This document shows positions 1 through 18,943 of a stretch of DNA of 20,000 nucleotides, in pieces. The translations under genes were made by a program, and so were the position numbers. Every line of letters starts with the position of its first letter. Positions within the stretch are counted from its first letter, which is position 1. Source of the DNA: Reclinomonas americana ATCC 50394 (lineage: Eukaryota); the NCBI GenBank assembly GCA_048213135.1, contig PS015219.1:143176-163175 (forward strand), in the 5' to 3' direction. Under the pieces are notes generated by a model. That model searched no databases, was not told the origin of the DNA, and worked only from the letters and a program-made list of their open reading frames with translations.

Positions 1-2644
1 GACCACATACACCGAGCAGCGATCGGCACCGACAATGTCTCGTGTGCAGTCGGCGATGCGCAGCAAGCAGTTGCTTGTCGTGTCGTGACTGAGAATGTTG
101 GCAAACTCCACGTACGTGTTGCTGCGCACAATCTCCTTTTGTGTGCGCTCATGATGCAGCGCATTGGTCAGCGAGATGCCGACAAACACTCCGAGAATGG
201 TGCAAAAGTATTCGTCGTCGTCAGTGTACGGCTCGCCGCCGTTCTTGTTGATGAACTGCAGCACACCAATGATCTGTCCGTGACTCTTGATTGGCAGGCA
301 CAGCATGCTCTGCGTGTATGCATGTGAGCCCACCGTTTTCCAACGCGGAAACGATTTCGAGATGATTTCCGTACCTTGGTGGTGTAGCCGGTGAGCTCGT
401 CGACATCGTGATTGAAACGCGGGTGCGCGTAGGCGTCGCGAACATTGAGCACCGTCTCTGCAGCGGTCGTGCACACACGAATGAGGAGACGCGTGTGTGG
501 TGCACCACAAAACAGAGAATGCGAGTTGTTACGCACCCGACGTGACACACAAGCCCGCAATACCCGATGTCGCGGGCAAGCGGAATTCACTCATGCCATC
601 GGCCATCAGCGACACCAACTCGTTTGTGTCCTTGTCCAACAAGAACATGGTGGCGCTGTGCATGTGCGCGAGGTGGTGAGTGACGAGCAACATCGTTTTG
701 TCACCGTCGCACTCACCGGTCGGAGCGTGTCAGTGTGCGGGCATCTGTGAGGATTTGAGATGCGAGTTGTGTGGTCGAAATGTTGCTCTGCGCAGGGCGG
801 TCGGGCAGTGAGGATGCTTGTCGACGTGCAATCACAGTGCAGGCTCGCGCACCGTGACATCTCGAGCGAATCCGAGAAGCGCCTGCAGTCGGTCCTTGTC
901 GTTGCGTGCGTGCTCGTAGTTGCGCTCCAGCAGCTGCTTGCTGAGAATGTTGTCGAAGGCCAGGCTGACCGACTGCAACACAATCTCCACCGCCTGCACC
1001 ACTTGATCGTCCATTTGGCGTCGGCTGCTGCCCCGCTGAATGCCGTAGACGAGAACGCCAGCATGCTATGATAGGAGATAGAGTTGGCACACGAGACAGG
1101 CATCAAACATATCACAAACAAAGATCCACTCTTACCGATGTCTTGTCGCGGTTCTGGAACGGCGAAAAGGCTACCTGCGTCACTGGAGCTGCTGTGCCGT
1201 GCAGTGCCGGATCATCGGTCCGTGCATTGTATCGTCTGTCGCTCGACAGATCTGCGACATGCACCACCGGCGAGCAGCTCAGCACGCTGCATCGAACCTT
1301 GCAGACTAAAAAGAACCGATGCTCACCATTGACCACCACCGTGGTCTGCGTGTTCATGGCAAACATGNNNNNNNNNNNNNNNNNNNNNNNNNNNNNNNNN
1401 NNNNNNNNNNNNNNNNNNNNNNNNNNNNNNNNNNNNNNNNNNNNNNNNNNNNNNNNNNNNNNNNNNNNNNNNNNNNNNNNNNNNNNNNNNNNNNNNNNNN
1501 NNNNNNNNNNNNNNNNNNNNNNNNNNNNNNNNNNNNNNNNNNNNNNNNNNNNNNNNNNNNNNNNNNNNNNNNNNNNNNNNNNNNNNNNNNNNNNNNNNNN
1601 NNNNNNNNNNNNNNNNNNNNNNNNNNNNNNNNNNNNNNNNNNNNNNNNNNNNNNNNNNNNNNNNNNNNNNNNNNNNNNNNNNNNNNNNNNNNNNNNNNNN
1701 NNNNNNNNNNNNNNNNNNNNNNNNNNNNNNNNNNNNNNNNNNNNNNNNNNNNNNNNNNNNNNNNNNNNNNNNNNNNNNNNNNNNNNNNNNNNNNNNNNNN
1801 NNNNNNNNNNNNNNNNNNNNNNNNNNNNNNNNNNNNNNNNNNNNNNNNNNNNNNNNNNNNNNNNNNNNNNNNNNNNNNNNNNNNNNNNNNNNNNNNNNNN
1901 NNNNNNNNNNNNNNNNNNNNNNNNNNNNNNNNNNNNNNNNNNNNNNNNNNNNNNNNNNNNNNNNNNNNNNNNNNNNNNNNNNNNNNNNNNNNNNNNNNNN
2001 NNNNNNNNNNNNNNNNNNNNNNNNNNNNNNNNNNNNNNNNNNNNNNNNNNNNNNNNNNNNNNNNNNNNNNNNNNNNNCACAGACTGATGCCGGTATCCTC
2101 CGTGCGTTGCACAGTCTTGCCTTGATCGTCGACGCAGAACCACACCAACTTCTTGTGCCGTGCGTCGTGGAACACGATATTTGCAAAGTCCACCGGCAAC
2201 ACGGCTGTGTGTGGGGGGAGTGTGAGCACGCTGATACTCTTCCTCACTCTCTCTCTCTCCCTTTCTCCCACTCACGCACCTGGTAGTCCCTGCTTCACCG
2301 CGGTCATGAGACCCGACGGATCCTTGTCGCACATGCCACATGTCACAATGGTATCGAGCAGGTCGCAGGCGGCCACCATGCGCTCTGCCGGAATTAGCTC
2401 GCGCAGCAGTCGAGCCGTCTGCAGCTTCGCTCCACCTGCTCCAGCCACGCCCGCTGCCGCTTCGCCGACGGAGGATGAGCCCACCGAGCTCGCACCCCGT
2501 GATCGGCCGGCACTCGTCGCACGCGCGCTCATGCTTCCGCCTCGCGCACTGCTCAGTGGTGTCTGATCCTCGCTGAACCGGGGCGTCACCAGGGCCGGCG
2601 CGAAAGACAGCGCGCCTCCTCCCAAGATTGGCACCGGATCTACA

Positions 2645-2678
<34 letters not shown>

Positions 2679-3270
2679 CGATGATTTAATGCATGCATTG
2701 CAATCGTGCACAAAAAATCGAGAAAACGGAACAAGACGTAACTGACAATGCCGAGCATCGTCGCTCCGGCGTGCACTCCAATGTCTTGCAGCGCATTCGC
2801 ATCGTCCAGCGCAAGCCCATCATACGATAGTACCTGACTCCACTCCTCGAATCCTGCCGTCACATGCGTGTGTGAGCCGGAAGACACACAAACCAAACGA
2901 GAGACAGACGGACGAGTGCCGGTATTGAGGAAAACGTGAGTGATACACGAAACAAAGAATGACACGGCTGTGTGTGTGTGCGTGCGTGTGTGTGCGTCTC
3001 TCGCCCTTTCACGGGTGCGCACACAGAAGGGAGAGAACACACGCAGAGGAGTGCGAGAGTGAAGGGAGTGTTTCGGAATACTAACGGCGCGTCACGCATC
3101 CGGCAAGGAATAGGCACAAAGGAAGAGCCGTCCACTCCACACTCACCCGTCTGCGCCTTCACCAACGCCTTCACATCTCGCAGGGTGGCGTCAGCCGCAG
3201 CATCCACCTCCACACGCTGTTGCGTGACAGCTCCGCGTTCGACACGCGTCAAGTTGACCGAAAAGCGCAT
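1..3270 (-). CDS. Multi-exon protein with N-terminal ubiquitin-like domain and at least 3 tandem GAF domains (PDE/cyclase-type GAF); 3' part lies outside the window
   Basis: ATG at 3270. Spliced translation: MRFSVNLTRVERG...TLRDVKALVKAQT|GFEEWSQVLSYDGLALDDANALQDIGVHAGATMLGIV (Ubl-like). GAF segments follow: LPVDFANIVFHD...; VVVN|DLSSDRRYN; SDR|ATMFLLDKDTNELVS...GIAGLCVTS|AETVLNVRDAYAHPRFNHDVDELTGYTTK|SMLCLPIKSHGQIIGVLQFINKNGGEPYTDDDE (NKFDE-like motif); then VGADRCSVYVV at the window edge. Continuity across the 1368-2077 gap is inferred. Confidence 0.8.
1368..2077. other. Assembly gap (710 N)
   Basis: Run of N inside the GAF gene. Confidence 0.99.
2645..2676. repeat. (AAGC)n tetranucleotide microsatellite, intronic
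   Basis: aagcaagcaagc... about 8 units in intron 2 of the GAF gene. Confidence 0.95.
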
Positions 3271-3449
3271 GTGAGACAACTCAACCACGCCGCCGCAGCG
3301 ACTGAGACCAGAGAGGACGACTGGGGGTGTTGCTCCAGTGGCTTTCGGAGTCCCCTGTTGGTTTCTTCTTTGCTCCGAACTCTTTTCTCTCGCTCACAGC
3401 CTAAAAACGGTCGCAGTATGTGCTCGCGCGATCACACTGTCCCATCACA

Positions 3450-4746
3450 ATGCTCGTGCGACGTCGCGCTCTTGTGCTCCTGCGCCATCTCGCGCAACCG
3501 CCCTCAGTGCGACCGTTGAGCACTACTGGCATGTCACATCAAGTGCAGCGCACAAAGCTGCAGGAGATCATGTCGAGCAAGGAGCAAGCAGAAGGTCTCT
3601 CTCTCTCACACTCTCTCCTTGGCCGCTGCGCACAGCTCGTTCTCACGTGTGAGCAGGGTGGGATGAGGCATGGCGCACGGGTGTCACTCCGTGGGAGACC
3701 AGTGAGGCGTGGTGCGCATTGTTCATCATCATCGTCCTCATCTTTGTTTCTTTGTGTTGACATCTCCCCTGCATGCAGTCCTCTGCTGCGACGACTGGTG
3801 GCCACCAACTGGTTTGCGCATCATCAGGCGCGACCGGATGGTGGACGCGCACTGGTCCCTGGAATGGTGCATCCTCCCCTCGTCGCGATCGATCGCTGTC
3901 TTCTTTTTGCTGANNNNNNNNNNNNNNNNNNNNCTACACTTGCACAGGGAACGGGATACGATTGCCACGCGCTCAAGGGCGCCTTCCGCACAGTGGTCGG
4001 GCTCGATCTGGTGGAGGTGGCCGTGGAGCGTGCCCGCAAGGTGCTCACTCTTTCTCTCTTCGTCTCTCTCTCTCTCTCTCTCTCTCATACACAATCGTCG
4101 CAGATCGCGGAGGAGCGCAAGGTGGAAGGCTGTGAGTTTATTGCCGCCGACTTTTTCACTTACAAGCCCGACAAGCCGTACTCGTTCATCTTTGAGTTGC
4201 GTGTGCCGTGCTGCTGCTGCTCGTCTGCCGAGTGCCCGTCACTCACACGTTCTCCATCTCGTGGTCGCAGTTATGCGTTGCGTCTCTCCGCAAGACGAGA
4301 GCAGTGGTCGGTGTGGACATGCTGACCCCTTTCCCTGCCACGCAGCTTCCTGGCCGCACTGCCACCGTCCCTGCGACAGCCGTGGGCAGAGAAGGTCTGC
4401 CATTCCTTGCCGCCGTCTCTGCGACGTAGATTGTGACTGACAACCGTGCATCAAAGATGAAGGAATTGTTGTGCCCGGGCGGCGAACTGCTGACGCTCAT
4501 CTTCCCGCTGGGCACCTACGAGGGCGGCCCGCCATACGCCATGAGCTACGAGCTGTTGCGTGAAGTTGTCCCCGAATACCAGTATCATTGGTGCAACGTC
4601 GCGCGACTTACACGTTTTTTCCGCGCAGTGTGCAAGGCTTGCTGCGGCCGCTCGGCTTTGAGAACATCTACGACGAACCAGTGGTGAAGGACTCGATCAA
4701 GCCACGCCGAGGCGCCGAGCGTGCCGTCGTATGGCGACGTCCATGA
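3450..4746 (+). CDS. SAM-dependent thiol/halide methyltransferase (HOL1/TPMT family), 9 exons
   Basis: Spliced: ...EGWDEAWRTGVTPWETSEACPLL...GRALVPGM|GTGYDCHAL...VVGLDLVEVAVERARK|...EFIAADFFTYKPDKPYSFIFD|YA|FLAALPPSLRQPWAEK|MKELLCPGGELLTLIFPLGTYEGGPPYAMSY...PRRGAERAVVWRRP*. Family motifs present: TPW, VPGxGxGYD, DFF, FDY, GGPP. ATGs at 3450 and 3531; TGA at 4744-4746. Confidence 0.92.
3914..3933. other. Assembly gap (20 N), intronic
   Basis: Run of N. Confidence 0.99.
4271..4276 (+). other. 6-nt microexon (TTATGC) in the methyltransferase
   Basis: Flanked by cgcag| and |gttgcg. Joining ga|ttatgc|c gives D-Y-A in the conserved FDYxF motif. Confidence 0.85.
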
Positions 4747-4882
4747 AGTTAAAACAAAAAGTTCGGTTTTTCTTTCGTCCAAAAGTGCCGGCACGCGCTT
4801 ATTGTTTTTGTGCTCCGATCGCGCAAGCCACCACCACCACCACCGCCACTGCCAACTCCCGCGCACGCGACACTAGTGTGAG

Positions 4883-4906
4883 ACACACACACAGAGAGAG
4901 AGAGAG
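4883..4906. repeat. (AC)n(AG)n compound microsatellite just upstream of the ATG at 4913
   Basis: acacacacacagagagagagagag. Confidence 0.9.
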
Positions 4907-4912
4907 TGAGAC

Positions 4913-6720
4913 ATGACGAGTCACCGCGACAGTGAGCCTGTGGTCACCGCACTGGCCTCGGACTCGCTCTACCACCAACTGCACATGCACCAAAAGCCTT
5001 CGATGATGGCGACAACGCAGCAGAGTGTGTCGGACGCTGTCAACAACGAGCTGGTGCTGCTGACAACACCACTCGCTCTCTGGGACACACTGCTGATGCC
5101 GACGACCATGCCTGCGCCTGCTGCTGTCGACTCGGCCGCATGTGCCATTGGCCCGTCCTCCTCTGCCTCCTCACCACCATCATCCTCTCTGTCACTGGTG
5201 GACGCACTCCGCAAGCTCAGTGACGTGCTGGCCCGTTGCGTCACTCGTTGTCAGTCGTCTGTTCGTCGTCCGTGCTCAGTTTCACTCACTGATCGCGATG
5301 CAGTTGGCCAGTGGCGACTGGAGCGCAGTGAGCACCTGGAGCGGCTGCTGGAGCTGGCCAAGCACAAGGACGCGGAGACACGACACGCGGCTGTGTCGGC
5401 CTTGTGGGCGGCGTTGCATGGTCGGTCGAGTTTGGTTTCAGCCAACTGACACACCAATCATTGGTGGTGACTGACATGGTGATGTGTGATGGTGTGCAGA
5501 CAATGCCGAGTTGCAGTACATGCTGGGCGGGCTCGGTGGTGTGCGAGTGCTGAGCTCGCTGTTGGTCGACTCGTGTGCCGATGTGCGGTTGGCGGCTGGT
5601 GGAGCTCTGCGAAACGCGTTGGCGATTACTCCGCTCAATCGCGACGCGCTGTGCGAGTGTGGTGGTGTGGAGGATTTGGCGCGGTCCATTGCCCTTGGTG
5701 CCAACGTGGAGAATGTCGGAGCGCTGCGGAACGCCGTACGGAGTGAGCACAAGGGCAATGTCCGCACACTGCTGTCCAAGCCGTCGTATCTCGCCACGTT
5801 GATTGAGTGCTGTGCGTCGCGCGAGCGATCAGCAGTGCAGGAGCAGGCGCTTGCAGCCATCATCAGTGTGGTCAAGAGTTGCGGAATGCATCAGTGGAAA
5901 GGCAAAGAGTGCAGTTGAGTTGACGCTATATATGTGTGTACAGGCGACCGATCGAGTCGCAAGATGCTGGAGGATCTGGACGGGTGGGATCGGATTCGCG
6001 CATTGAGCGATCCCGGCAACTCGTGCGACGCTGTGCGACTGCTGGCCGAAGAGGCGCTCAAGCAACGGAGAGGTTTGTCAGTCGTGAGTGCACCACTGGT
6101 GACAATCTGCGCCGTGCTTCTCACCACCACCACCCCCAACAACAGCACTGTTGCACTGGTCGGCAGACCCAGCCACCAGCTCTGCAGGCGTTGCGTCTCT
6201 CATTGCATTGCGCTATTTCCTTCTTTGTTTATTGACACTTTCGTGCAGTACGATTTCTTGTGGACGATTGACGAGGACGGCTCCCGAGTGACCAAGAGCC
6301 ACATGAATGAGATCATCACCATCTGCAAGGTGTGTACACACTGCAGGATCACTGCTGCGGCGTCTGTTGTCTTACATTTTCGTGTTCGTGCAGTCGGTCG
6401 AGTACTTTGAACCGAATTCGGGGGTGCATGAGTTCTCGCTGCTGGTGGTGCGCAAGACCAGCTCCAACAAGAGTCACATTGGCTTGTGTTCGCACACATA
6501 CAACAACACGTCGTTGAGTTTCGACGGTGCACTGCACATGCCGATGGAGGCCTTCAAGGATGGCGACGTGGTCAAGTGCATTGTCGACATGCGGGCCTTC
6601 CAGGCTCAATTCTTGGTGAATGGACGCGCCGTGGCCGACATGCCAGTGCCACGCACGTGGACACGGGTGCATGTGGCCGTGGCTGTGCGGCACTTGGGCG
6701 GTTGCTTTGCATTTTGCTAA
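4913..6720 (+). CDS. Armadillo/HEAT-repeat protein with C-terminal PRY-SPRY (B30.2) domain, about 7 exons
   Basis: ARM-like: LGGLGGVRVLSSLL...VRLAAGGALRN, CECGGVEDL, VQEQALAAI. PRY-like: LHWSADPATSSAG|YDFLWTIDEDGSRVTK. SPRY-like: SGVHEFSLLV...SHIGLC...FKDGDVVKCIVDM...FLVNG...VHVAV. TAA at 6718-6720. Confidence 0.8.
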
Positions 6721-6801
6721 TACCGGCGAATGGGTTGCAAGCGAGAGTGTCACAGGATATTCGTAGAGAGATATGTTGTTTTTTTGAGGAGTCACAATGA
6801 A

Positions 6802-8541
6802 TTAACGCTGTTGCGACAAGTAGGCCTTCTCGCGCGAATCATAAAAGTGCAGCAAGTCTTCGCCACGTGGTCCCGGTGCGACACCGTATCGAATCGGCCG
6901 TGGTGAGCTCTACGCACGCGAGGGAGTCAAAGCAGCACACAAGTCCACGGAGAGACAAACCACCATACCGTGATGAACTCGGCAGGAACCCGCTCTCCCA
7001 GCTCCAACGTGAATTCGTTCGAGTCCCTGTTACAAAGGGTGAGCGACAGATGACCACAAGACACACAACACTCATCGGCAAGGTACCTGAGTTTGACTCC
7101 ATCCTGTCCGCCGGGCCAGCCAACACCAATCTGCATGCGGGAGAAATGAGCGACCACCACGTGCGGCAGGGAAACACATACACGAGCGCAACATTCATGG
7201 CCACACACAGGCGTCCAGGTCCGGCGCACATCTCCGTAATGGGAATGCGACGAGGACGGGCTGCCGTCGATCGCTGACTGCGATACTCTTCCATGGCTTC
7301 GACTCCCTCCAGTGGTTTCAGTGCGCGAATGAGAACGCTGCACTTGTTGGGCAGCACAATGTTGAAGAGCGGGTAGCCCTGCAGTGTGAATATGTAGGCT
7401 CGACCAACCGCGTCCGGTGCATGCAGAGTGCCGGTGGTCTTGGTGTCTGTGCAATGCATTCATTTGTCAGCCATGGCAGCACTCGGGGGAAAGGGCAGCA
7501 TGGGCCATAGGGACGCAACGTGCATGTGACCCCGGATCTGTCACACCGTAATAGGCCTCCAGCTCCACAATCTTGGCCTTCATCTCGTGCCCGTCACACC
7601 TGCATGCACGACGTCAGTGCAAAACACCAGCGATGTTCGCCTCTCTCTCTCACACACACTCTCTCACCGGCGGACCACCACAGCACCGAGGAGGAACCTG
7701 GCCACATCCTCCACCGCATACTGCGGCGACTCAATCACATCCCACAACTGCAGCACGCCGGCAGCGATGCGTGAGAGCGAGGACAACTGCGTGGCAACCA
7801 CACACACATACCGATGCATCCGGCGCAATCGGCACCGGCTGTGCGTCCTCGCCGCCAATCGCCGCAGCAATCGCTGGCGGGGGAGCAGCTGCCGACGCAG
7901 CTGCTGATGATTTCTGCCGCTTGCGCGGGGGCTCTGCTGCTGATGGTGCTGGTGGTGGTGGCGGTGGCGCGGCAGCTGCAGCTCCCCCAGCCGGACGGGC
8001 GAACCGCGACCAGTCGTCCTTTTTCTCCTTCTTCTCCTCCTCCTCTTGATCTTCTTCCGAGCCACCGCCATCGTCGACAATCATCACATCACCATCGTCG
8101 TCGACGGCCAGCACCTCGGGCGATCGCGATCGCTTCCGCGGCATCGCCACTGCATTCGTCGAGTTGAGAACGACCTCCACCGCACCGGCAGCGAGGCCGC
8201 CATGAATACCGCACGCCAGCAGCGAGTCGTGCACGTCCGTGTCGTCGGGATTGGCGGCGTCAGTGGCCGGGTTGAGCAGACGCCCGTCGACCACCACCGA
8301 GCGTGCACGAAGCGGCGCAGCACCGTTGCCGACAATGCGCTGCATGCGTGTGGTCACTTGCTCGACCAGCGCGCCCAGTGTGTCGGCGTTGCGCAAACCG
8401 GTGAGCACAATGTGCTGCACGTCGGCGCCGCGAGTGACGCGCACCGAGCGCAAAGAGAACTGCAAATGGTGCGAATGGTTGGGAGCGCGCGCGTGTATGA
8501 TGAAGAAGGGACGACAAAACCCGCACCTGCTCCTCGCTCAT
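6802..8541 (-). CDS. MPG: DNA-3-methyladenine glycosylase (MPG/AAG family) with N-terminal Ubl-like domain and low-complexity linker, about 8 exons
   Basis: MSEEQ|FSLRSV... start (ATG 8541, intron 8526-8460). Catalytic domain: VARFLLGAVVVR|...KIVELEAYYGVTDPGSHA|...GRAYIF...FNIV...VLIRALKPLEGVEAM...CAGPGRLCVAMN...SSPRPIRYG...HFY. TAA at 6802-6804. Confidence 0.88.
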
Positions 8542-8626
8542 CGACACACAGAAAAACAAACAACAAATCGATGTCGACATCGATGTCGACCAAACGCCAA
8601 GAAAACACACAGGTCGATGTCGATCT

Positions 8627-9999
8627 TTATTCCGCCTCACTCCCACCACTCCCACTGCCACCTGCCGACGCCGATGCTCTCCTTCGTGCTCTCCGCACCG
8701 GCTTGGCTGCCCTTTCTCCGCTCTTGCTGGCCGATCCGCGCTCCGACTGCAACAGGAAATGAGTTGTTGGATGAAGAGAACGATGAGTGGCAAGCAACTG
8801 CAGCAGCGTACCGACTCCTCCCGCTTCATCCTCTTGCGTGGTGGTTCCGCGCTGTTCGATCGCATCTTCATGCGCTCCCGTTCCCGCTCCTTCTGCATCA
8901 GCAGCTTCTTCTTCTCACGACCGCGCAACGCCTTCAGTCCCTTCTTCTTCTTCTTGTGATTGAGCACGGGGGCGGAGGCGTCGGCCGACGACGCATCGTC
9001 GTCGTCACTGCTCGCTTCCGAACCACTGCGATGCGGCAGCTGGAGGACGAGCTTCTCCTGCTCCAGCTGCCAAGCGTGTATGCATGTCAGCAAGAGAAAC
9101 GCACAGCTCGCGATCGCGAACGCCGATGCCGTGCCGTGCCAACAAACCTTTTTGGCGTAGCGCTCGCTGTTGACCGACGGCTTCTCCAGAATCAGCACCA
9201 CACGCTGCATGTACAGAATGGGCAGGCCCGGCACGAGACGCATCTCGGCACGAAAATCCGGGTCCTCAGTGGCCAAGAAATAGTGGTCAGGGTTGTTCTC
9301 GCCGATAATGGCCCGAATGCTGTCGGGCGCCGAGCGCGGCACGACCTTCTTTGGCCCCTTTTCGCCCTCTCCCTTCTCCTCCTCCTCCCCATCCTCCTCC
9401 TCCTCGGCCTCCTTCTCCTTCTCACCACCTGCTGCTTCCTCGGCTGTCGGAGCACTGATGGGCCTTAGCCGCTGCGCATACCACCGCGCGTCGTTAAAGT
9501 CGGGACCGAGGCTACGCAGTTCCTGAACCACTTCACGCGTCACCAGTGCGCACACAAAGAGAGAGCGAGTCAAGGATCAAACACACAAGCGCGGACGCAG
9601 AGAAACGAGGGAGGTGTGGCGACAACAAAAAAAGGATATCCAACTGCACGCGATCGCCGAGCGCCTTCTCAATCATCTCCTGCGGATCGTTCTTGGTGCG
9701 CAGAATGGCCACGATGAAGCTCCCGTCCACTGCTCAAATGACGTCAGCAACTCTTCGCGCTGGCAACACCCCACCACCATAATCGTGGACGCAGAACAAG
9801 GTGCCGTTGAGCAGACGACACGAGCGGCCTCGGTGCACGTGCGGCGTGTGTGTGAATGTCTGTGCATGTGCAACGTCGCCCACCCTCCCCGCCTCGCCCC
9901 ACGCACGCAACAGAGAACGCGATACGGTGCGCGGAAGCCATAGACGGTGCGGAAGAAGAGCACCGTGCGGCGGAACTGTTTGAGTCGCTTGTAGCGCAT
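8627..9999 (-). CDS. UTP23: rRNA-processing PIN-domain protein Utp23 (Fcf1/Utp23 family), 5 exons
   Basis: MRYKRLKQFRRTVLFFRTVYGFRAPYRVL|LDGSF...VTREVVQELRSLG...IGENNPDHYFLATEDPDFRAEMRLVPGLPILY...LILEKPS, followed by a Lys/Arg-rich tail. TAA at 8627-8629. Confidence 0.92.
9546..9639 (-). other. U12-type (minor spliceosome) AT-AC intron, 94 nt, phase 1
   Basis: 5' site ATATCCTTT, branch site TCCTTGAC (9576-9569), 3' end CAC. Removal joins VQL-G|TG-VTREVV in frame. There is no AG within the intron to act as an acceptor. Confidence 0.93.
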
Positions 10000-10063
10000 G
10001 TGATTGTGATTGAAGAGGATGAGGACCAAGTCCTGCAACAATAATCGTCTTCGTTTTTTCTTT

Positions 10064-13023
10064 TTACAAAGCGTCGAGCGAGAAAAAGTGCACATTCTCC
10101 TTCTTCTCGGCCTTGTCCATTTTCTGCATGCACAATCAATCGTGAGAAGGGAAGGAAGTTACAGGGGACGGAGACTCGAGGGGGCGACGCACTCTTTCCC
10201 TTCTGTCGAGGATGACAATCGGAATGGCCAGCGACACGATCGAGACGAGGACGGCCACAATCACCCACAGAGCGTAGCTTGCAGGCGATAGCAACAAATC
10301 GAGACTCCACCTGCGCACAGACAGCAAGTGAGATATCGAACGAAGCTGATCAGTGTGATTCGACGACGACGAAACCCTGTGGGGTTGTCGAGCGGGTACG
10401 GATAGGCGACGAGCTGTGCATTGGGGATGACACTGGTCCACGTCTGCTGATTCGCAGACTGCCAGACACAATTGGTTGGTAAACAGCAGAATGCATCACT
10501 CCCTTGCATCGCTGCTCACCTGCACCGTAGGAATACCAACAGTCACGTACTCGATGTAGTTGTTGGTGCGCCCGACGCCAAACATGGCCGACGGCGACTG
10601 CAGCACATTGTACGCTGTCTGTGACATGATCGCTCCACTGCCCGTGTACAGCTCGCCACTAATTCCGCGAATGGTGAACTTGCTGTGCGCTCCCAACATG
10701 GGTGCCAGCGGCTGTCACATTGCGTTTGTCAGCGTCGGACGAGGAGGAGCAAGTTGGCGCGCGCGTACACACACACCTTGGGATCGGGGAAGCGCTCCCC
10801 ACTGGGGCACCATCCGGGGCAGACGCCATTGGTGACTGCACGTGGTTGTGAGTGTGACAAAGAGAGGAAACATCATCAACGTGATGGCACGAACCGTAGA
10901 TCTTGAAAAAGAACGCATCGGCGGTGTCTGTGTCGCCGAAGATGCTGATCTGGTTGTTGCCGCAAGCGATAACGTCCAAGGAGCCGATTCCGCGCGGATC
11001 GGCAAATGTCGCCATCGAAATGCCGGCCACAGGCAGCGCCGTGTGCGTCGCCCACTCAAAGCCTCGACCCGAGTACGAGCACGACTGATGCCGAAAAGAG
11101 GACGTGAGTGGGAGAGAAAGAAGAGTGTCATCTCCACGCTCGTGCGTACCGAACAGCTAATGTTGGTAAGGATGCGAGTCGAGTACTGCGCAGTGCCGGT
11201 CTTGGCGCTGATCATCAGATCCTGGAAGCCGTCCAGGTTCAGGTCGCCCGGTCGGATCGTGACGGGGCTGTACACGTCGTCGTTCCACATGGCAAACGAA
11301 GACGGCACCGACATGATGAAGCGATACTGTGACAAAGGAGGGTGAGTTCTCTCGCACGCACCACCCTGCCGACATTTTGCACGACTGCGTTACCGGTGTT
11401 GCACTCCACTCATTCAGCGCGTCAAAGCTGAAGTTGGCATCACTCGTGCACAGTGACGTGTACGACCTACAGCTGCTGCCGGTGCCGCTCTGCACGGCGC
11501 CACACACACCCATCTGCAGACCGCAGTGTCAGGAAACCTGTGAAAAATGCATCATTCGTGTTTCACCGTACCTGCTTGTTGTATGCAACCATGAAGCCAT
11601 TGGTGGTGCTGCAGTCGGGAGCCGGGTGGCACACGGGTATGACGAGATCGAGATTACCGTCCGAGTCTGCACACAGATGGTGAGCGACAGTGCTCCAGAA
11701 CAGCGACATGGATGGGCACTTGCCAATGTCGACGAGGGTCACTTGCTGTGCGCCACTCGGCAGCGCGAGGCGCGAGTGGAAGCGATACACCGCATCCGGT
11801 TCTCCTATCCATATCTCAATGGCAATCGCACGTCGATCGGCACAATCGCCAACTTGCGCTGCGTGCGTCGTGTCAGCATCAGCACCGGCACAATGAAAAC
11901 GTGCCAGTCGCGAACAGACCACACGGGCCCGTGACCGTCAGCACCATGTCGGCTCGACAGTCGCCGTTGATATCCGCAAAGGTGTGCGACGATGGCACCG
12001 ACAGAGCGTACGAGGCGACATTGTCGGCGGGCATCGATCGGAAGAAGGTGCTGAAAGAGCCATCCGACGTGCTGTGTGGCCAACAACGATCAGTCTCTCT
12101 GGTCACACAAAAACACTGCCCATTGCGCCCACGACTCAACGTGGTAAACGTGCGATTCTTGTTGTTGAGCCACATGATACGCTGCAAGGCCGAGTCGAGC
12201 GGACTGCCCAACAGATCCGGGTACGCATCGCCGTTCACATCAACCACCGCCACTTGTCCGTACGATGGTGGAAGCACGAGCGGCGAGGCTGACATGCACG
12301 CACACAGGCGTAGGTGTCGTTAGCAACAAAACGTACGATACACCCTTGGCCACCGCATCGACACGCACTCACCAAACGTGTGAAGATCGCCAAACAACAC
12401 CGTCAGCTTGGTCTCTGCTCGAGATCGCATGCGTGAGTCTCTCTCAAGCGCACACAACTTCGCCGATGAACGCACCTGGCGACGTGGCCATTACGTTCGC
12501 GTCTCGACTCTGCACCAGCACGTCGACGAACCCATCGTGATCAAAGTCGACGACCACCACTCCCACAATCACATCCGTCACATCCGCGGCACTAATGCTC
12601 ACATCCGACACGCGCGAATATGCCTGTTTATCTGTGGCACGTAAAACGGGCAATCGGTGCATGTGTGAGTGCGTGCGAGAGGGAGAGGGCGGATGGGGGA
12701 GAGAGAAGAGCAAGCACACACCGATGGAATAGATGCTGACACTGTGCCCGTCCTCGGCGAGAATAAACAAGTCCAAGCTGCGCAACGCACACTCTCAGCA
12801 ACACTCTCTCGCACTCTCCTGAGGCACACACACACACACGCGCACGCAACTTCTTGTCGTTGTTGTAGTCGGCGGTGGCCACCAACTTGCCGCGCACATT
12901 GGCCAGCCCACTCGACAGCTCTTCCAGCACCTTTTGCGACTGTGCATGCACCACAGTCGCCAGCACGACTATTGCTGCAAGCAGCACCGCGACAGACCAC
13001 GTGTGTGGCCCTCGCCTCCTCAT
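10064..13023 (-). CDS. ITFG1: ITFG1/LINKIN/TIP-like FG-GAP repeat type I membrane protein, about 16 exons
   Basis: Signal peptide (WSVAVLLAAIVVLATVVHA). FG-GAP motifs: ADYNNDK, VDFDHDGFVDVLV, DVNGDAYPDLLG, ADINGDCRADMV, DIDSDGNLDLV, GDLNLDGFQDL. Family C-terminus: SQTAYNVLQSPSAMFGVGRTNNYIE, IPNAQLV, a TM helix, then RERKMDKAEKKENVHFFSLDAL*. Confidence 0.93.
11667..11723 (-). other. GC-AG intron (57 nt) in ITFG1
   Basis: G|GCAAGT donor and TGCAG| acceptor. Removal restores the FG-GAP motif VDIDSDGNLDLV. Confidence 0.8.
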
Positions 13024-13072
13024 TCAAAAACGAACTTGCAATCCGGAGGACAGACAGACACTGTCACACAAG

Positions 13073-16000
13073 ATGTATCAATACTATGAGAGCGAAGACG
13101 GCGATGGTGATGATGCCGTGAGCCTGTGGTCCTCTTCCTCTTTCGCCTCGTCATCGTCATCGTCGGCGGCGGCACTGACCTTTTGTTGCGCACCAAGGGC
13201 GACGTTTCTGTCAAACAGTCTCTGATTGCCTGACATGCATGCACAGATGAGAGCGGTGAGGTGATTGCATCGCCGGCTGCTGCTGCTGCTGCAGAGCCAG
13301 TGTCATCACCGCCGCCACCACCACCACCATTGCGCGAAGAAGAAGCAGAAGATCGACATCGTGATTGGAATGCCGAGTTTCAGGTGGCGTTGGACGCGCT
13401 GCTGGCCGCCGTGCGACCGGTGCAGGCCACTCCCGATGAGCATGTGCGGCGCTTGGCGGCGGTGCATCGTGTGGTGACGGCGTTCCGGGAGGCGGCGCGG
13501 CAGCATGCGCGGACGATTGTGTTGGAGCTGGCGGTGGAGCCACCGGAGGCGCGTTCGATTCCTCCGGCGCGCTCTGTGGGTGGTGTGGCTGGTGGTGTCA
13601 AGGTGCGACGTCGTTTCTCTATTGTTTTCCGGCTTGAAGTGCTGATGGATGGTGCTGATGGAGAGCACAGTACATGGTCGACAACATATTCTTCAAGCTC
13701 GTGCGCGACCACACGGGTATGCTGTATGGCAGTGACCGCGAGGTGAGTGTGGTTGCTGTGCTTACTGTCGCTGAAGTGCTTCCCTGACCATCTCGTGCGT
13801 GTACAGGCCATGAAGGCGGCCAGTCAAGAGATGACTGTTGCGTGTGGACTGGATCGCCTTTGCCCGCATCGACGTGAGACAGTGGACTGACTGCTGCGCG
13901 TGTGCAGGGAATGGCGTCGTACTTGCAGGCTAATGTGTCACGCTTGCGCACGCCCCTCATGACCATGAGTTGCGTGGTGGATGAGGAGCAGGTCTCGTGC
14001 TTGTTTTCTCTGACTCTCTCTCCTGCAGTCGACTTTCTCGGATATCGCATCATTGCATCTACGGTGTTGCCGCTCTCCGGCGACACGCTGGTGTACGGCT
14101 CTGGTGACGGTGGCCGTACGGTGTTGGCCGACCCGGAGGTGTCTGCGTTGATGGAGGAGGCCGCGTGCTCCATCAATCTCAAGCGGCACGGCGCTGGTCG
14201 CGATGGTTCGGATCGTTGCCCGTCAGCGCGCAGTCACTTGCCAACCTTCTGCACAGGTGTTCCACTCTGGGCTCCGTGCGACATTGAAGTGCATCGCGCA
14301 CTCGACGGGCGGTTCTACGTCTTGGACACGGCGTGCGTCATTGGTTTCTTCGCTGCGAATCCATGTTGTTGTTGGCACTCACGCCTCTCGACCACGACAA
14401 CGCAGGCGTGTTTTCCCACCAGTGCCGTCCCTTGACGGAGGTACAGTGCTCCTCTTGTGTGTCTCGTCTCTTGCCGTGCTGACTCTGTGCGGCAGAGAAT
14501 GTGTCTCTGGTGCGTGTGCCAGCGACGGTGACCGACGACGGCCTCGAGGTGCTGCCGTCGGTGCCCAGCCGAGACATCGGTCGCGTGATCAGTGCGCTCT
14601 TTGGTAGCACCGAGCGAGCTGAGCGCGTGGCCGTCACGCGCGACACGCTGGTGTTTTTTGACCGACAGGCTACCGTCAAGGTGAATGCCTACAGCCGTTG
14701 TGCAGCATGGATGCATAGCACGTGCACCTCATGTGTATGTTCTGGTGCAGAACGACCGTGTGGCCACGCTGCTCAACATACCAGCTGAGCATGCAGTGCG
14801 AGGGCTCGCTTTGGTGGTCACTCGGTGAGCACAAGAGTTGGTGCGCCATGCGTAACGGGCGGTAGACTCATACGCTTTCATTTTCAGCAATCCTGGCCAG
14901 CATCTGACCCACTTGTTCCGCCCCGAGTTTGTCAGCTCCAATCCAGTCCCGCTCTCGTCCGATGCCTACACAGGTGCGCGCCCATACCCCTGTGAAAGAG
15001 AGAGAGAGAGTCTGCATGGGCTCAGTCACTATATAATAATAGGCTTCGGTGCACATCAAGCTGCGGAGCACAATGCTGAAGTCGCGGAGGCACGTCGGCG
15101 TTTGCTGGACACGGTGATACCGCAGCTGGTCGCCGATATGGCTTCCGGGCGAGTGTATCCCACCAACAGGTGCGGTGTCTCTCACTCCGTGGAAACAAAA
15201 TCACGTTGCCGACGCATGCCTCCTCCAGCGAACAGCTCCGTGCGGCACTGCATCAACGCGGAGTCAACATGCGCTACATGGGAGTCATTCGCTCCATGCT
15301 GGAACATCCTGTTGGCGCTGACCACCCCATGCGTGTCGAGCTACTCACCGAGATGCTGGCGCGTCTTGCCAAGACCCAGTTGCGAGATGAGCTTCGACGT
15401 GTGCACAGTAGCGACATTCAGGTGTACAGGTGCGTTTGTGTATTCTCTGTGTCTTTCACCTGGCGCAGACGAGCTAAGCTGGACTTCCTCGCATCAGGCG
15501 CCACATTGTTGCGTTTTTCAATCTGATTTTTGGAAGGTCGGCGGCCTCCGACTACATGTGGCAAGGTGCGTAAGACGCAATGTGTGTGTGGCATGTCCCA
15601 CGCATCACTCGCAGCTGAATGCGCATGCTACGTAGAGCGACTCTACTTTGCCGTGCTGGAACGATACGGACGTTTCGGGACGGTGTTCACGGAGCTGGAT
15701 CAGACTCGGCATTTGCATGTCGACATGCGTCTCAACACCAAGGTGGGTGTCGGTGGCGCCTGTTGTGCTTGTTTTGTTGCTGACAGACTGCTGCAGCTGC
15801 CTCGACTGCTGGATGCACTCGAGTACCACTGTGGCGTCGTGTTTTCACATCGTGCACACCAGCTCCTCTCCAGCGTGACGCCAGAGACGCCCACTCCACT
15901 GGCAGAGGAAGGTGTGCGGTCAAGGCGTTCTTTTGGTGTCTCTGTGCGCACGCTCACCGCAGTGTTGCGCAGATTTGCTGTTGGTGGTCCCTCGTGACAA

Positions 16001-18943
16001 GGGCAGCGAGAGGTTCTCTCCGCTGCCACCCCCACGTCTCTGATCGATGCTTCTTAACTAAACAGCATTCCGCCCGCAGATTCTACAGACTGGGTGAGGA
16101 ACTGGCGGCCATCGAGACCGCCATGGGTGTCATGCCGAACCTGGAAGACATTTTGTACATGATGGAGCACCAGGCACCTGGTATGTGTGCGACTCTGTGT
16201 AGTGTGTTGTGTACCTTCTGCGGCTCACTGCGCGAATGTGTGCAGCTCCAGCAGGCGATCTCGTCTCCACCTTCCGCAATCGACATTTGCTGCCGACGCT
16301 GCCGGCCGATGGCGGTGGTCAGGGAGTTGATCCCATGAAAGCTATGATGCGCCAGTCTGCCCGCTCGCTCATCCAGTCGCAGTTGATGGTGCATGCAATG
16401 CATCAGCAAGGTGCGCAATGTGCACATGCTTAAGTGTTCACACAGCGCGCTCACGAACTGACGCGCGCGCGGGGCAGCCTTGCTCACTGTGTTGGGTGGC
16501 AACACGAGCCACCCGGCGGTGTTGCGTTCCAAGATTCGACAGGCGTACCTGCACGAGAGGATCGACGAACTCGACAAGGCAGCTGCGCTGCTGCAAGAGT
16601 GTCTGGCGATCGTGTCAACCGCAGTCTACCTCGGCCCCAATGTGCGTGCAGGCCAAGTTTCTCATTGTTGCGATCTGCAAGCAATCATCGTTCATGTTTT
16701 GTGTGTGCACACAGATGACCGCTGCCTGCTTGTACTCGCTCGGTTGGGTGCTGTACAAAGCCGATCGCCTGAAAGAAGCGGCGCGGTGCTTTGAACTCGG
16801 CATGCACACACTGCACGCGGTGTTCGGCTGTGGCCCCGAGACCTTCCAGGTCGCTCGTGGCAACTGGCAGGCGGAACGCGGGCAGGTACACACCATGGTG
16901 TCGTACATCGGTTAGTTGGATGTTGGTTGCTCCGCGCATATGTTTGCTTCTCGGTGTCCTTGCTTACGATTGTTGTGTATCTTGGTTTGCAGATCGCGAA
17001 AGTCCATTCTTGGTGGCCACGGTGGCGCGTGGCCATCCCATGACCATGTTCTTCATCGATCGATTGACACACATTATGCGTGCTGAGGGCACTGTCGGTG
17101 ACTTTCTCGACCTGGGTCGTACCGCCATGCAGGCGTTTGGTGTGTGGGCGCCACCCCCCGATCCCGCCATTCTCGAGCGGGTATTTGGCGACCGTGTACC
17201 GGCGTTCCTCGTGGAGCTGATTGCGTGCTTCCGGTTCCCGTACGAGCCCATGCAGGCCATTCAACATTTCTCGCACAACTTTTACGATGGCGAGAGGACT
17301 GAAAAGCTGGCGACGATCAGCACGTTTATCCGCGAAATTCAACAGTTTGTAGAGCCTGAGCGACGCTTCGTGAACAACACCACTTTCGTGTGTGTTTTGT
17401 GCAACAGCGTCGCTTACCTGCAACGTGGTGTGCAGTGTTCAGCGACTCACTTGGCGAGTTTATGTGTATTCCCGACGCACCTGTTCTGAATCTCCAATCG
17501 GGACGACCGGGCGAGTCGGTGCTTCCGGAGATTGCGCATGTGTCGGCCGACGAGAATGTGGCCGACAATGTCGATTACTTTGGCCTCTGTTGCGTCTGCC
17601 GACTGCAGTCCATGCTAACCACGTTTTTTTGTTTACAACGTGGTTCGTGCAGCACACCTCACGTTCCGTCGTTACCCCGGCGCCCACCCGGTTTGTTCAT
17701 TATTATTGTCGATCACTTGCTGCTCACCGCGATGTTCGGCTGAATTCGTTGCTGCAGATCGCGCCGCCGCACACGTGGTCGTTCCCTATCGGCACCACCA
17801 TTATCACCTCGGTGTGTACGGAATGCCGTACATCTGTGAGCACCACGGCTACTGTTGCGTCGCCATGCACGTTCCTATCCGCAAACGCTCGTTGTTGATG
17901 ACCACTCGCATTGGTGCAGTACACGTTGAACAAGATGACACTGCAGAGTGTCGAGGAGCGCGATGGCGCATACTGGTGTGTCAAGAAGTTGTCGGGCAGC
18001 ACCTCTGGCGTTACGTATGTCGCAGGCCTGCTGTCGGTACTCGACGGTGAGCACCGGCGTGTTGGCGTGTGTGTGTGACGCATCCACTCGTTATTGACCG
18101 CTGCGTTTCGGTGCAAAAGACGAGCAGCAGTGGCTTGATCCCGCGCACTACACGCTGAGCGAAGACCGCATTTTCAGTCCGGAAGAGGAGATTGCCGCTG
18201 GAGGTGTTCAACGACCATCACAGGCCGTAACCATTCGTACTCCCGACGGCGAGCAAGCATTCATGTGCCAGGTCAGTGAAGGGCGTGGTGCGGAAACCAA
18301 TTGTTGAAACTGATTCATGTTTGTTGTTGTGTCTGCAGTGCGTTGCCTACGACGACGGTCTCAGTCCAGTGGATGCAGAGGGCCGTCCGCAACCCACCTC
18401 CATCATCTCCACCGTCAACGCCGCCGACGGCAACGTGACGAATCGACAGGTGTGCGCACAAGGGTGTGACGGTTGATCCGGTGCCCTCACTGTGGTTCAC
18501 GCAGGTGTGTGGTGTTGCTGGTGACGGCACGAGTTCGAACTCGCGAGAACACTGGCTTGTGCGCGGTTGCTCCTTCCCCGTGTACATTCGCACGGGCAAC
18601 AAAATGGCTGGCACAGGCATCACCAGCGAGTCGGAACTGACCATGGCGAATCTGTGTGAGGAAGTCACTGTGCCGGCCGGCACCTTCAAGTGCGTGCGCT
18701 TGGAGGGGGTGCAGCGTGCGGGTGGTATGATCAGCAAACTGGTGCAGTGTTTCTCGAGTGAGGTTTGGATCGGCTGAGCGTGTGGTACGCACAAAAAACG
18801 AATGTGTCTCACGCCGCCGCCGTGCGTAGGTACCTGGCACGTTGGTGATGATGCAAGTGACAATGACTCCCGTGCCAGGCATGGAGTACATTATGACGAC
18901 GCGACTGGAGCGGGTGACCCTCGGTGGAGCTGGCGATCAGTGA
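13073..18943 (+). CDS. Large Clu-domain (clustered mitochondria/TIF31-like) protein with TPR-like region and C-terminal DUF3108-like beta domain(s), about 30 exons
   Basis: Clu motifs: DWNAEFQ, GGVAGGVK|YMVDNIFFK, AMKAASQE, IDFLGYRIIA, TLVYGSGDGG, DIEVHRALDGRFYVLDTARVFPP, LFRPEFV, PLSSDAY, LHQRGVNMRYMG, EMLARLAK. TPR-like: AALLQECLAI...LGPN|MTAACLYSLGWVLY...EAARCFE. Tail: EEVTVPAGTFKCVRLE. One continuous frame can be spliced to TGA at 18941-18943. Confidence 0.82.

Follow-up and report, generated by a model that had tools for sequence, protein, structure and literature searches.

The window analyzed here, a 20-kb (20,000-nucleotide) stretch of the Reclinomonas americana genome (contig PS015219.1), carries two forms of GT-starting 5′ splice site: ordinary donors of the type G/GTGCGT, and a second class, GTTGCGT with a few close variants, that follows exons ending in A, C or T (a slash marks the cut, and a lower-case letter before it the last exon base). 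The second class makes up 17 of the 78 introns, in keeping, within this 20-kb window, with the original prediction that about one-fifth of introns are of this kind. All results are based on the window sequence and on fetched homologues. The observation itself is confirmed as real and well beyond chance in the window; its earlier interpretation, namely that the motif is the normal donor displaced by one base, with an altered U1/U6 pairing register or a variant snRNA as the predicted cause, is partly supported, and the whole is provisional.

At all 17 of the donor positions named earlier the sequence is GTT(G/A)(C/A)G, and every one of them follows an A, C or T, exactly as had been claimed; GTTGCGT occurs at 12, GTTGCGC at two, and GTTGCGG, GTTACGT and GTTGAGT at one each. 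Independent curation yielded 78 introns, against the previous hand count of about 79: 55 with GT after G, four with an unshifted GT after a non-G base, 17 of the GTTGCG type, one GC-AG and one AT-AC. The former figure of about 56 GT donors after G, none of them shifted, agrees with the 55 found here (56 with the GC-AG intron, which also follows G), and the approximately four unshifted non-G donors are those at 14333, 16642, 10192 (minus strand) and 17390. Over the 76 GT donors, the dependence of the GTTGCG type on a non-G base at −1 is pronounced (0 of 17 after G versus 55 to 4 for the ordinary form; Fisher exact p = 1.6e-13), and G occupies the common motif position in 72. A subset of 15 introns obtained in a donor-agnostic manner gives the same picture, with five shifted donors, all after non-G, nine ordinary donors after G and one ordinary donor after non-G (Fisher p = 0.002). 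The heptamer GTTGCGT occurs 16 times in the window versus 5.24 expected, a number reached in 0 of 200 shuffles, and GTTGCG is biased toward the sense strand over the gene models (22 sense versus 7 antisense). The motif is nevertheless insufficient for splicing, since modelled exons contain GTTGCGT at 15508 and 16521 as well as, at positions 15379 and 8929 (minus), GTTGCG.

The strong fact in these counts is the converse of the rule as first worded: 17 of the 21 GT donors after non-G have the shifted form, compared with none of the 55 after G. That the form is "used only after non-G" stands as an observation (0 of 17 after G) but is weak as a rule when taken alone, with p = 0.004 if G precedes GT as often as in exons (0.274) and p = 0.04 if its frequency is that before GTT (0.173). 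When the two forms are aligned by motif, another G stands directly ahead of the conserved one in 3 of the 55 ordinary sites and in none of the 17 shifted ones; because these counts agree, the apparent exclusion of G equals the G depletion already present at −2 of ordinary donors.

The relation between the two forms becomes clear from a donor profile built from the 55 ordinary after-G donors only. Under this profile the score of the 17 sites is −10.0 bits in the register of the cut but rises to +5.15 bits one base over, with G at +1 in place of G at −1. This bears out the earlier description of the motif as a one-base displacement of the normal donor; ordinary donors themselves average 4.24 bits, less than the shifted sites do one base over. 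C is the commonest base at +4 of ordinary donors (22 of 55) and stands at the equivalent position in 16 of the 17 shifted sites. The profile scores support the view that GTTGCGT is this organism's ordinary donor, G/GTGCGT, displaced one base into the intron. The shifted sites are also far more uniform downstream: their information content is 1.68, 1.68, 2.0 and 1.17 bits at +4 to +7, as compared with 0.31, 0.22, 1.05 and 0.31 bits for ordinary donors at +3 to +6. Of the four unshifted donors after non-G, three match GTGCGT perfectly. A uniform shifted class together with perfect GTGCGT at non-G donors is the compensation to be expected of one reader for which pairing must reach a certain minimum.

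The placement of the cuts was assessed by evidence independent of donor information. In gene B, encoding a thiol methyltransferase-like protein, the spliced model aligns without a gap to the plant thiol methyltransferase P0155 across FIFD/YA/FLAAL and SYEL/VQG, and whole-protein scoring ranks six of the seven introns first, including all three with shifted donors. These are the introns at 4196..4270 (plus strand, a/GTTGCGT, 75 nt; junction FIFD/Y, first of 11 variants), 4277..4345 (plus, c/GTTGCGT, 69 nt; first of nine variants, with gap-free alignment) and 4555..4628 (plus, t/GTTGCGT, 74 nt; junction SYEL/VQG, first of 16, the frame also requiring an intron). The last of these ranks third behind two GC-donor variants when scored by local windows, a scoring biased by where the windows are placed, and whole-protein scoring was used instead. 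Between the first two introns lies a micro-exon of 6 nt (4271..4276, plus, TTATGC), so that a GTTGCGT donor is also found on its 3′ side; the micro-exon is needed for FIFD-YA-FLAAL, which matches FIFDYTFFCGL of P0155 without a gap.

In gene G, encoding a CLU-domain protein, every frame-keeping combination of a GT or GC donor with an AG acceptor within 45 nt, plus the retained form, was compared with 154 CLU-domain homologues. Among the 14 introns with usable homology, the modelled boundary came first in nine, second or third in four and 14th in one, which falls in a non-conserved insert; for introns 9 and 16–18 the scoring was uninformative, these being in non-conserved regions. The nine top-ranked boundaries include both GTTGCGT donors within the homologous region and the unshifted c/GTGCGT donor at 14333. 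The first of the two GTTGCGT introns, 13837..13907 (plus, t/GTTGCGT, 71 nt), ranks first of 12 variants at junction QEMT/G, for which homologues read HELTG, QELIG and HELKG. The second, 13969..14028 (plus, a/GTTGCGT, 60 nt), ranks first of 11 at TM I/DF, the retained form scoring 3183 versus 3953 for the spliced one; most of the matches listed in the search of representatives start after the 20 residues that a retained intron would encode. The comparator at 14333..14405 (plus, 73 nt, LDTA/RVFPP) ranks first of ten variants.

Two other placements of the cut were tried at these junctions and rejected. A GC-AG cut three bases on (GTT/GCGT) scores lower at all five homology-testable junctions (3630 versus 3820 and 3649 versus 3953 in gene G; 228.9, 234.3 and 234.7 versus 237.3 in gene B), and a cut one base later would replace the conserved D of FIFDY by E at 4196 and the hydrophobic I before DF by S at 13969. 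Because both variants fit the homologues worse, the cut is placed before GT. Of the conserved codons adduced earlier for this placement, FD/Y and I/DF thus hold, and L/DGSF holds in part: exon 1 is borne out as far as ...RVL, its continuation being unconfirmed.

That last junction belongs to the intron 9730..9911 (minus, t/GTTGCGT, 182 nt; RVL L/DGSF) of gene E, which encodes a UTP23-like protein. The intron is required by the frame, and exon 1 aligns over its full length with residues 1–29 of yeast Utp23, up to ...RVL; a PDB search with exon 2 alone returned a chance match only and no relative. In gene D, encoding a methylpurine DNA glycosylase, the frame-required intron 7447..7519 (minus, c/GTTGCGT, 73 nt; GSHAH/TK) separates exon 4, ending at position 46 of PF02245, from exon 5, which extrapolates to about position 49, with one split codon in between; the sole other in-frame GT donor, at 7546, would remove the conserved DPGSH that aligns to human AAG. 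Cuts are thus fixed by homology at 4196, 4277, 4555, 13837 and 13969, and aligned by profile or PDB match at 7519 and 9911.

At eight further sites an intron is required by frame or by a stop codon and has strong 3′ signals, the exact donor being chosen by frame. The intron 7131..7192 of gene D (minus, t/GTTGCGC, 62 nt; AMN/IG) follows an exon that aligns to its ...CVAM end with human AAG and with position 128 of PF02245; a single intron 7181-7027 (t/GTATGTGT) is a frame-compatible rival. In gene C, which encodes a protein with ARM and SPRY regions, retention of 5878..5943 (plus, a/GTTGCGG, 66 nt) leads to a stop, and none of the exonic AGs scores as high as its acceptor. In the same gene, 6190..6248 (plus, c/GTTGCGT, 59 nt) is frame-required and has no other in-frame GT donor with the same acceptor; its first 12 bases are those of the homology-validated donor at 4277, and the rival model is a single intron 6159-6248 with 6073-6145 read through. 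In gene F, encoding an FG-GAP membrane protein, 12778..12850 (minus, a/GTTGCGT, 73 nt) is required by the frame, with an alternative in-frame donor at 12835 (t/GTGTGTGT). Three such introns lie in gene G: 13185..13246 (plus, t/GTTGCGC, 62 nt), frame-required and in the non-conserved N-terminal region; 17589..17652 (plus, t/GTTGCGT, 64 nt), frame-required and outside the homologue coverage, the acceptor of which is matched by 0.2% of exonic AGs; and 17854..17919 (plus, t/GTTGCGT, 66 nt), retention of which leads to a stop, with an in-frame alternative donor at 17836 (t/GTGAGCAC). The eighth, 2640..2742 in gene A (minus, a/GTTACGT, 103 nt), has a length that is not a multiple of three, so that the intron is needed for the open reading frame (ORF); the score of its acceptor is reached by 1.2% of exonic AGs, and its exact donor is placed by frame, in-frame GT alternatives being present at 2838 and 2727. 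The 3′ end of this intron is a (GCTT)n microsatellite directly before the acceptor, seen on the plus strand as (CAAG)n at 2645-2676; CT and CA dinucleotide runs are frequent in other introns (e.g., 4056-4086).

The remaining two sites are in frame and stop-free. For 5235..5303 in gene C (plus, c/GTTGCGT, 69 nt), which the ORF does not require, the status as an intron is based on donor motif, length and acceptor (0.2% of exonic AGs as high). The putative intron 12072..12140 in gene F (minus, c/GTTGAGT, 69 nt) is the weakest of the 17 and has the weakest acceptor (−1.28 bits; 19% of exonic AGs as high).

As a class, the 17 introns have ordinary 3′ ends. Under an acceptor profile trained on the 59 other GT introns only, their acceptors average 4.33 bits versus −5.21 bits for 497 exonic AGs (p = 6.6e-12), and 16 of them are in the top 5%. 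All 17 start with GT and end with AG, 15 are 59-75 nt long, and a CTNAY motif is found in the last 50 nt of 12, compared with 44 of the 59 others. Taken together, the 17 sites look like genuine U2-type GT-AG introns cut before GT. An assignment to the U12 type was considered and rejected, the RTATCCTT donor being absent from the 17 and its sole match in the window, at 9632-9639 (minus), lying outside them. Derivation from an introner or transposon family was likewise rejected: weak intron-body matches occur in 23.5% of shifted pairs versus 20.7% and 20.8% of other pairs, and the best intron-body score within the shifted class is 20.3 bits.

All junctions are placed from sequence, several donors having been picked among frame-compatible alternatives, and the class might accordingly be an artefact of boundaries fitted to an expected rule or of an unrepresentative window, with no real donor class behind it. 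The gene models were produced with a purpose-written Viterbi gene finder followed by hand curation. Run with no donor model, any GT being treated as equal, the program read through many in-frame introns and merged genes, as it also did with an iteratively learned donor profile, and both runs served as cross-checks only; seeded with both donor forms as they stand at intron positions only, it gave 73 introns that were then corrected by hand to the final curated models, which have complete ORFs throughout and 78 introns in eight genes, some boundaries being choices among frame-compatible alternatives. To this may be added, on the side of an artefact, that two of the 17 introns are in frame and stop-free and that "never after G" taken alone has the modest significance given above. 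Against it, five junctions are fixed by homology and five donors (4555, 5878, 13185, 13837 and 17854) were placed exactly by the gene finder that had no donor model; the threefold over-representation and the sense bias of the heptamer, as well as the resemblance of the paired acceptors to real ones under a profile trained on other introns, also argue for a real class. Were five doubtful sites dropped, 12 shifted donors, none after G, would remain by simple arithmetic. We consider an artefact or chance effect highly improbable.

As the best explanation of the two forms, and with confidence a little above even, we favor a shifted pairing register used by a single reader, because of the profile scores and the shared depletion of G. 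In the predicted mechanism, a single recognition element, for which the 5′ terminus of the U1 small nuclear RNA (snRNA) is the likeliest candidate, would read a seven-base motif consisting of a non-G base followed by G-(G/U)-U-R-M-G-U. The exon-final G of ordinary sites would thereby correspond to the first intron base of shifted sites, and U would take the slot of the usual +1 G. The reader would need a G opposite the position normally paired with exon base −1 (C9 in human numbering), and the counts suggest that a G opposite the equivalent of C9 is near-obligatory. The cut would then be made at the sole available GU; in ordinary sites this GU comes one base after the conserved G, and in shifted ones it starts at that G. 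Having an internal mismatch, the shifted form would need a near-perfect downstream GCGU, whereas ordinary donors after G could tolerate many mismatches, and it is from this difference in tolerance that exons unable to end in G would mostly take the shifted form. In the later step, U6 would have to tolerate a C at +5 together with a G at +6, or else pair one base further in. The motif and its link to the −1 base, the five homology-fixed cuts and the profile scores are observed; U1 as the reader, its register and the tolerance of U6 for the extra base are inferred.

The same sites can equally be written GU(U)GCGU, which leads to a different reading, in which U1, and later U6, pairs normally with G at +1 and U at +2, U at +3 is flipped out, and GCGU serves as +3 to +6; the class would then consist of ordinary donors that carry one extra U, not of sites read by a shifted helix. 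In human sites, experiments have established a register with a single bulged base at +3 (or +2) (PMC4856993). Such a bulge would keep the contacts of G+1 and U+2 and would give U6 the one-base accommodation that any model needs. Under this reading, however, a G at −1 would add a pair and should be favored or neutral, yet none of the 17 shifted sites has it, versus 55 of 59 ordinary GT donors. The ordinary-donor profile with +3 bulged gives −1.92 bits, as against +5.15 bits for the shifted register, the difference arising from the exon columns. The sequence alone separates the two registers no further, and on these grounds we regard the bulge as unlikely.

Several observations weigh against the reading of both forms by a single U1 in shifted register. 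Nearest-neighbor folding with a human-type U1 5′ end, which may differ from that of this organism, gives mean energies of −0.96 kcal/mol for the 17 shifted sites, −7.02 kcal/mol for ordinary donors and −2.98 kcal/mol for unshifted donors after non-G; of the 17, only 12140 forms the shifted helix. In this calculation, a standard U1 in a plain shifted register is not sufficient and pairs poorly in any register, from which it follows either that U1 would be fitted to GUGCGU or that help would come from proteins or a second snRNA. By count of base pairs, moreover, H/GUGCGU pairs at least as well as H/GUUGCGU, yet it is outnumbered 17 to 4; pairing alone thus does not explain the excess of shifted over unshifted donors after non-G. 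At −1 the shifted sites show no enrichment in A (5 A, 5 C and 7 T), in contrast to position −2 of ordinary donors, where A stands in 29 of 55. Ten of the 17 boundaries are placed by frame and signals only, three of them (7192, 12850 and 6190) with rival models, and the introns at 5235 and 12140, being in frame and stop-free and identified by signals only, are maybe not introns. The sample, finally, is a single 20-kb window in which all junctions are inferred from sequence.

The weak pairing with a human-type U1 (about −1 kcal/mol) would be accounted for if shifted sites had a dedicated reader, that is, a second U1 variant or another factor complementary to GUUGCGU, with standard U1 serving the G/GU class. 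So would the sharp definition of the class, in which 12 of 17 sites share an identical heptamer, and the ratio of 17 shifted to four unshifted non-G donors, which simple U1 energetics do not predict; humans possess variant U1 genes in which the 5′ end is altered (PMC3561869, PMC10870369). A dedicated reader is less parsimonious, however, and the class has its downstream GCGU and its depletion of G in common with ordinary donors, as would be expected from one reader. An Rfam scan of the window detected no RNA family, so that the window contains no snRNA gene. We judge a dedicated reader to be quite unlikely.

The single shifted-register reader can be extended to a more far-reaching proposal, which we advance tentatively and short of expecting it to hold in full: a rewired reader with a near-obligatory G opposite a fixed snRNA position and a floating cut, with about one-fifth of the introns constitutively spliced via a shifted or bulged register, a U1 co-evolved toward GUGCGU, and U6 and U5 accepting C at +5 and G at +6. 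If this is true, exon ends would be freed from ending in G, and the organism would be a naturally occurring case of U1 handing over to U6 in two registers genome-wide.

It is worth comparing the class with splice sites of other systems. A shifted U1 register at rare human sites was reportedly described by Roca and Krainer in 2009, as cited by Tan et al. in 2016. The GTTGCGT-type sites resemble such human sites in having a GU start, U at +3 and a downstream consensus displaced by one base, and also in fitting the normal register poorly, fitting well once moved by one base, and being cut at GU. At these atypical human 5′ splice sites, all U1 pairs are displaced by one position, yet cleavage still occurs at GU (Tan et al. 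2016, PMC4856993). Unlike the human sites, which are rare and experimentally supported, the sites described here constitute 22% of introns (17 of 78), with a register predicted from sequence; they also serve most exons that end in a base other than G, and the displaced element is GCGU, not the AAGU of the human sites. The same paper puts the experimentally validated bulge and asymmetric-loop registers at a combined 1.5% of 201,541 human sites (PMC4856993). With the human +3/+2 bulge sites (PMC4856993), GU-U-GCGU shares the property of being writable as an ordinary donor with an extra U, but a bulge predicts no avoidance of G at −1, which is seen here (0 of 17), and the frequency here is far higher.

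The core motif has a parallel in Ostreococcus, in which introns outside chromosome 2 have a strong atypical GTGCGTG donor consensus and for which the authors raised a possible co-evolution of snRNAs (Irimia and Roy 2008, PMC2483917). Common to both are the core GTGCGT with C at +4 and a branch motif of the CTGAC type. Ostreococcus is intron-poor, and a displaced GTTGCGT class is unmentioned in the available portion of PMC2483917, whereas the density here is about four introns per kb of gene and the ordinary donors are degenerate. The existence of a second, sharply defined donor class beside ordinary introns recalls U12-type introns, unlike which the 17 sites have no RTATCCTT donor and have ordinary acceptors. 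A preprint on tunicates, in its available part, mentions a shifted register merely as a possibility for non-GT sites. No description of a GTTGCGT-type donor class was found among the papers listed in full-text searches, which covered mainly papers outside subscription journals, and the genome paper of the organism could therefore report the class. Among metagenomes, no relatives were found by a protein scan or by an exact 26-base scan.

Provisionally, the novelty lies in the apparent use, as a major class, of a shifted or bulged 5′ splice-site register known as a rare exception in humans. Human non-canonical registers were established one minigene at a time, and a genome with one-fifth of its introns in such a register would, if true, be different in kind. 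It would show that splicing, in its normal mode, allows the position of the cut to be separated from that of snRNA pairing, and it would predict specific changes in U1, and perhaps in U6, that should be readable from the genome. There is also a practical consequence for gene prediction in this lineage: six-base donor models with a single register would score shifted sites poorly, as the ordinary-donor profile does with these sites as cut, and could miss introns as well as the micro-exon 4271-4276.

The three other unshifted donors after non-G are placed as follows. The intron 16642..16714 of gene G (plus, t/GTGCGT) is placed by frame only, with an alternative donor at 16657 (a/GTTTCTCA), and 10124..10192 (minus, a/GTGCGT), the last intron of gene F, gives a complete ORF and is placed by frame and signals only. 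The intron 17390-17442 of gene G (plus, 53 nt), with donor t/GTGTGT (t/GTGTGTTT), is a provisional choice. It lies in the region 17330-17480, where the frame changes between two clearly coding exons and 46 GT/GC-AG solutions exist, none with GT after G; an assembly frameshift or an unusual intron could equally explain this change. Elsewhere in gene G, the region 14441-14887, from RVFPP to LFRPEF, comprises about 90 residues in the model versus about 10–15 in homologues, and shorter variants are preferred by the homology scoring (intron 9, ranked 14th); it is either a lineage-specific insert or a mis-modelled exon pair.

Two introns of other types complete the set. A U12-type AT-AC intron of 94 nt is located at 9546-9639 in gene E (minus), with the donor g/ATATCCTTTT, the only RTATCCTT in the window, and the branch motif TCCTTGAC about 23 nt before the 3′ AC; ALGDRVQL cannot be joined to VTREVVQELRSLG by any GT-AG solution. 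From the presence of this intron, the organism appears to have a minor spliceosome. The GC-AG intron at 11667-11723 in gene F (minus, 57 nt), with the donor g/GCAAGT (g/GCAAGTGC), is in frame and stop-free; its removal yields VDIDSDGNLD, which resembles the FG-GAP calcium motif, and this motif and the splice signals are the basis of its assignment.

The window has a G+C content of approximately 0.56-0.60 beyond the first 2 kb and contains three runs of N. Short-intron eukaryotic genes crowd both strands, and eight were curated: gene A (3270 to 1, minus; ubiquitin-like and GAF domains), gene B (3450-4746, plus), gene C (4913-6720, plus), gene D (8541-6802, minus), gene E (9999-8627, minus), gene F (13023-10064, minus), gene G (13073-18943, plus) and gene H (minus, partial). 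The domain names derive from single-exon Pfam matches (PF02245, PF04900, ubiquitin and, weakly, SPRY), PDB matches, the precomputed PF13236 annotation of homologues and our own reading of the translations. In a Pfam scan, five of seven exons of 26-36 residues had no match, and a protein search with the largest exon of gene G returned zero matches. The spacing of genes is very tight, with neighboring coding regions 50-170 bp apart (e.g., 4746 to 4913, 6720 to 6802 and 13023 to 13073), and intron length over the whole window is narrowly spread around 60-75 nt, at the density given above. In gene D, the glycosylase domain is preceded by a long N-terminal extension of about 220 residues, encoded in one long exon and containing acidic and proline/alanine-rich stretches, and the conserved loop after DPGSHA is without the TPRN..MF residues of human AAG.

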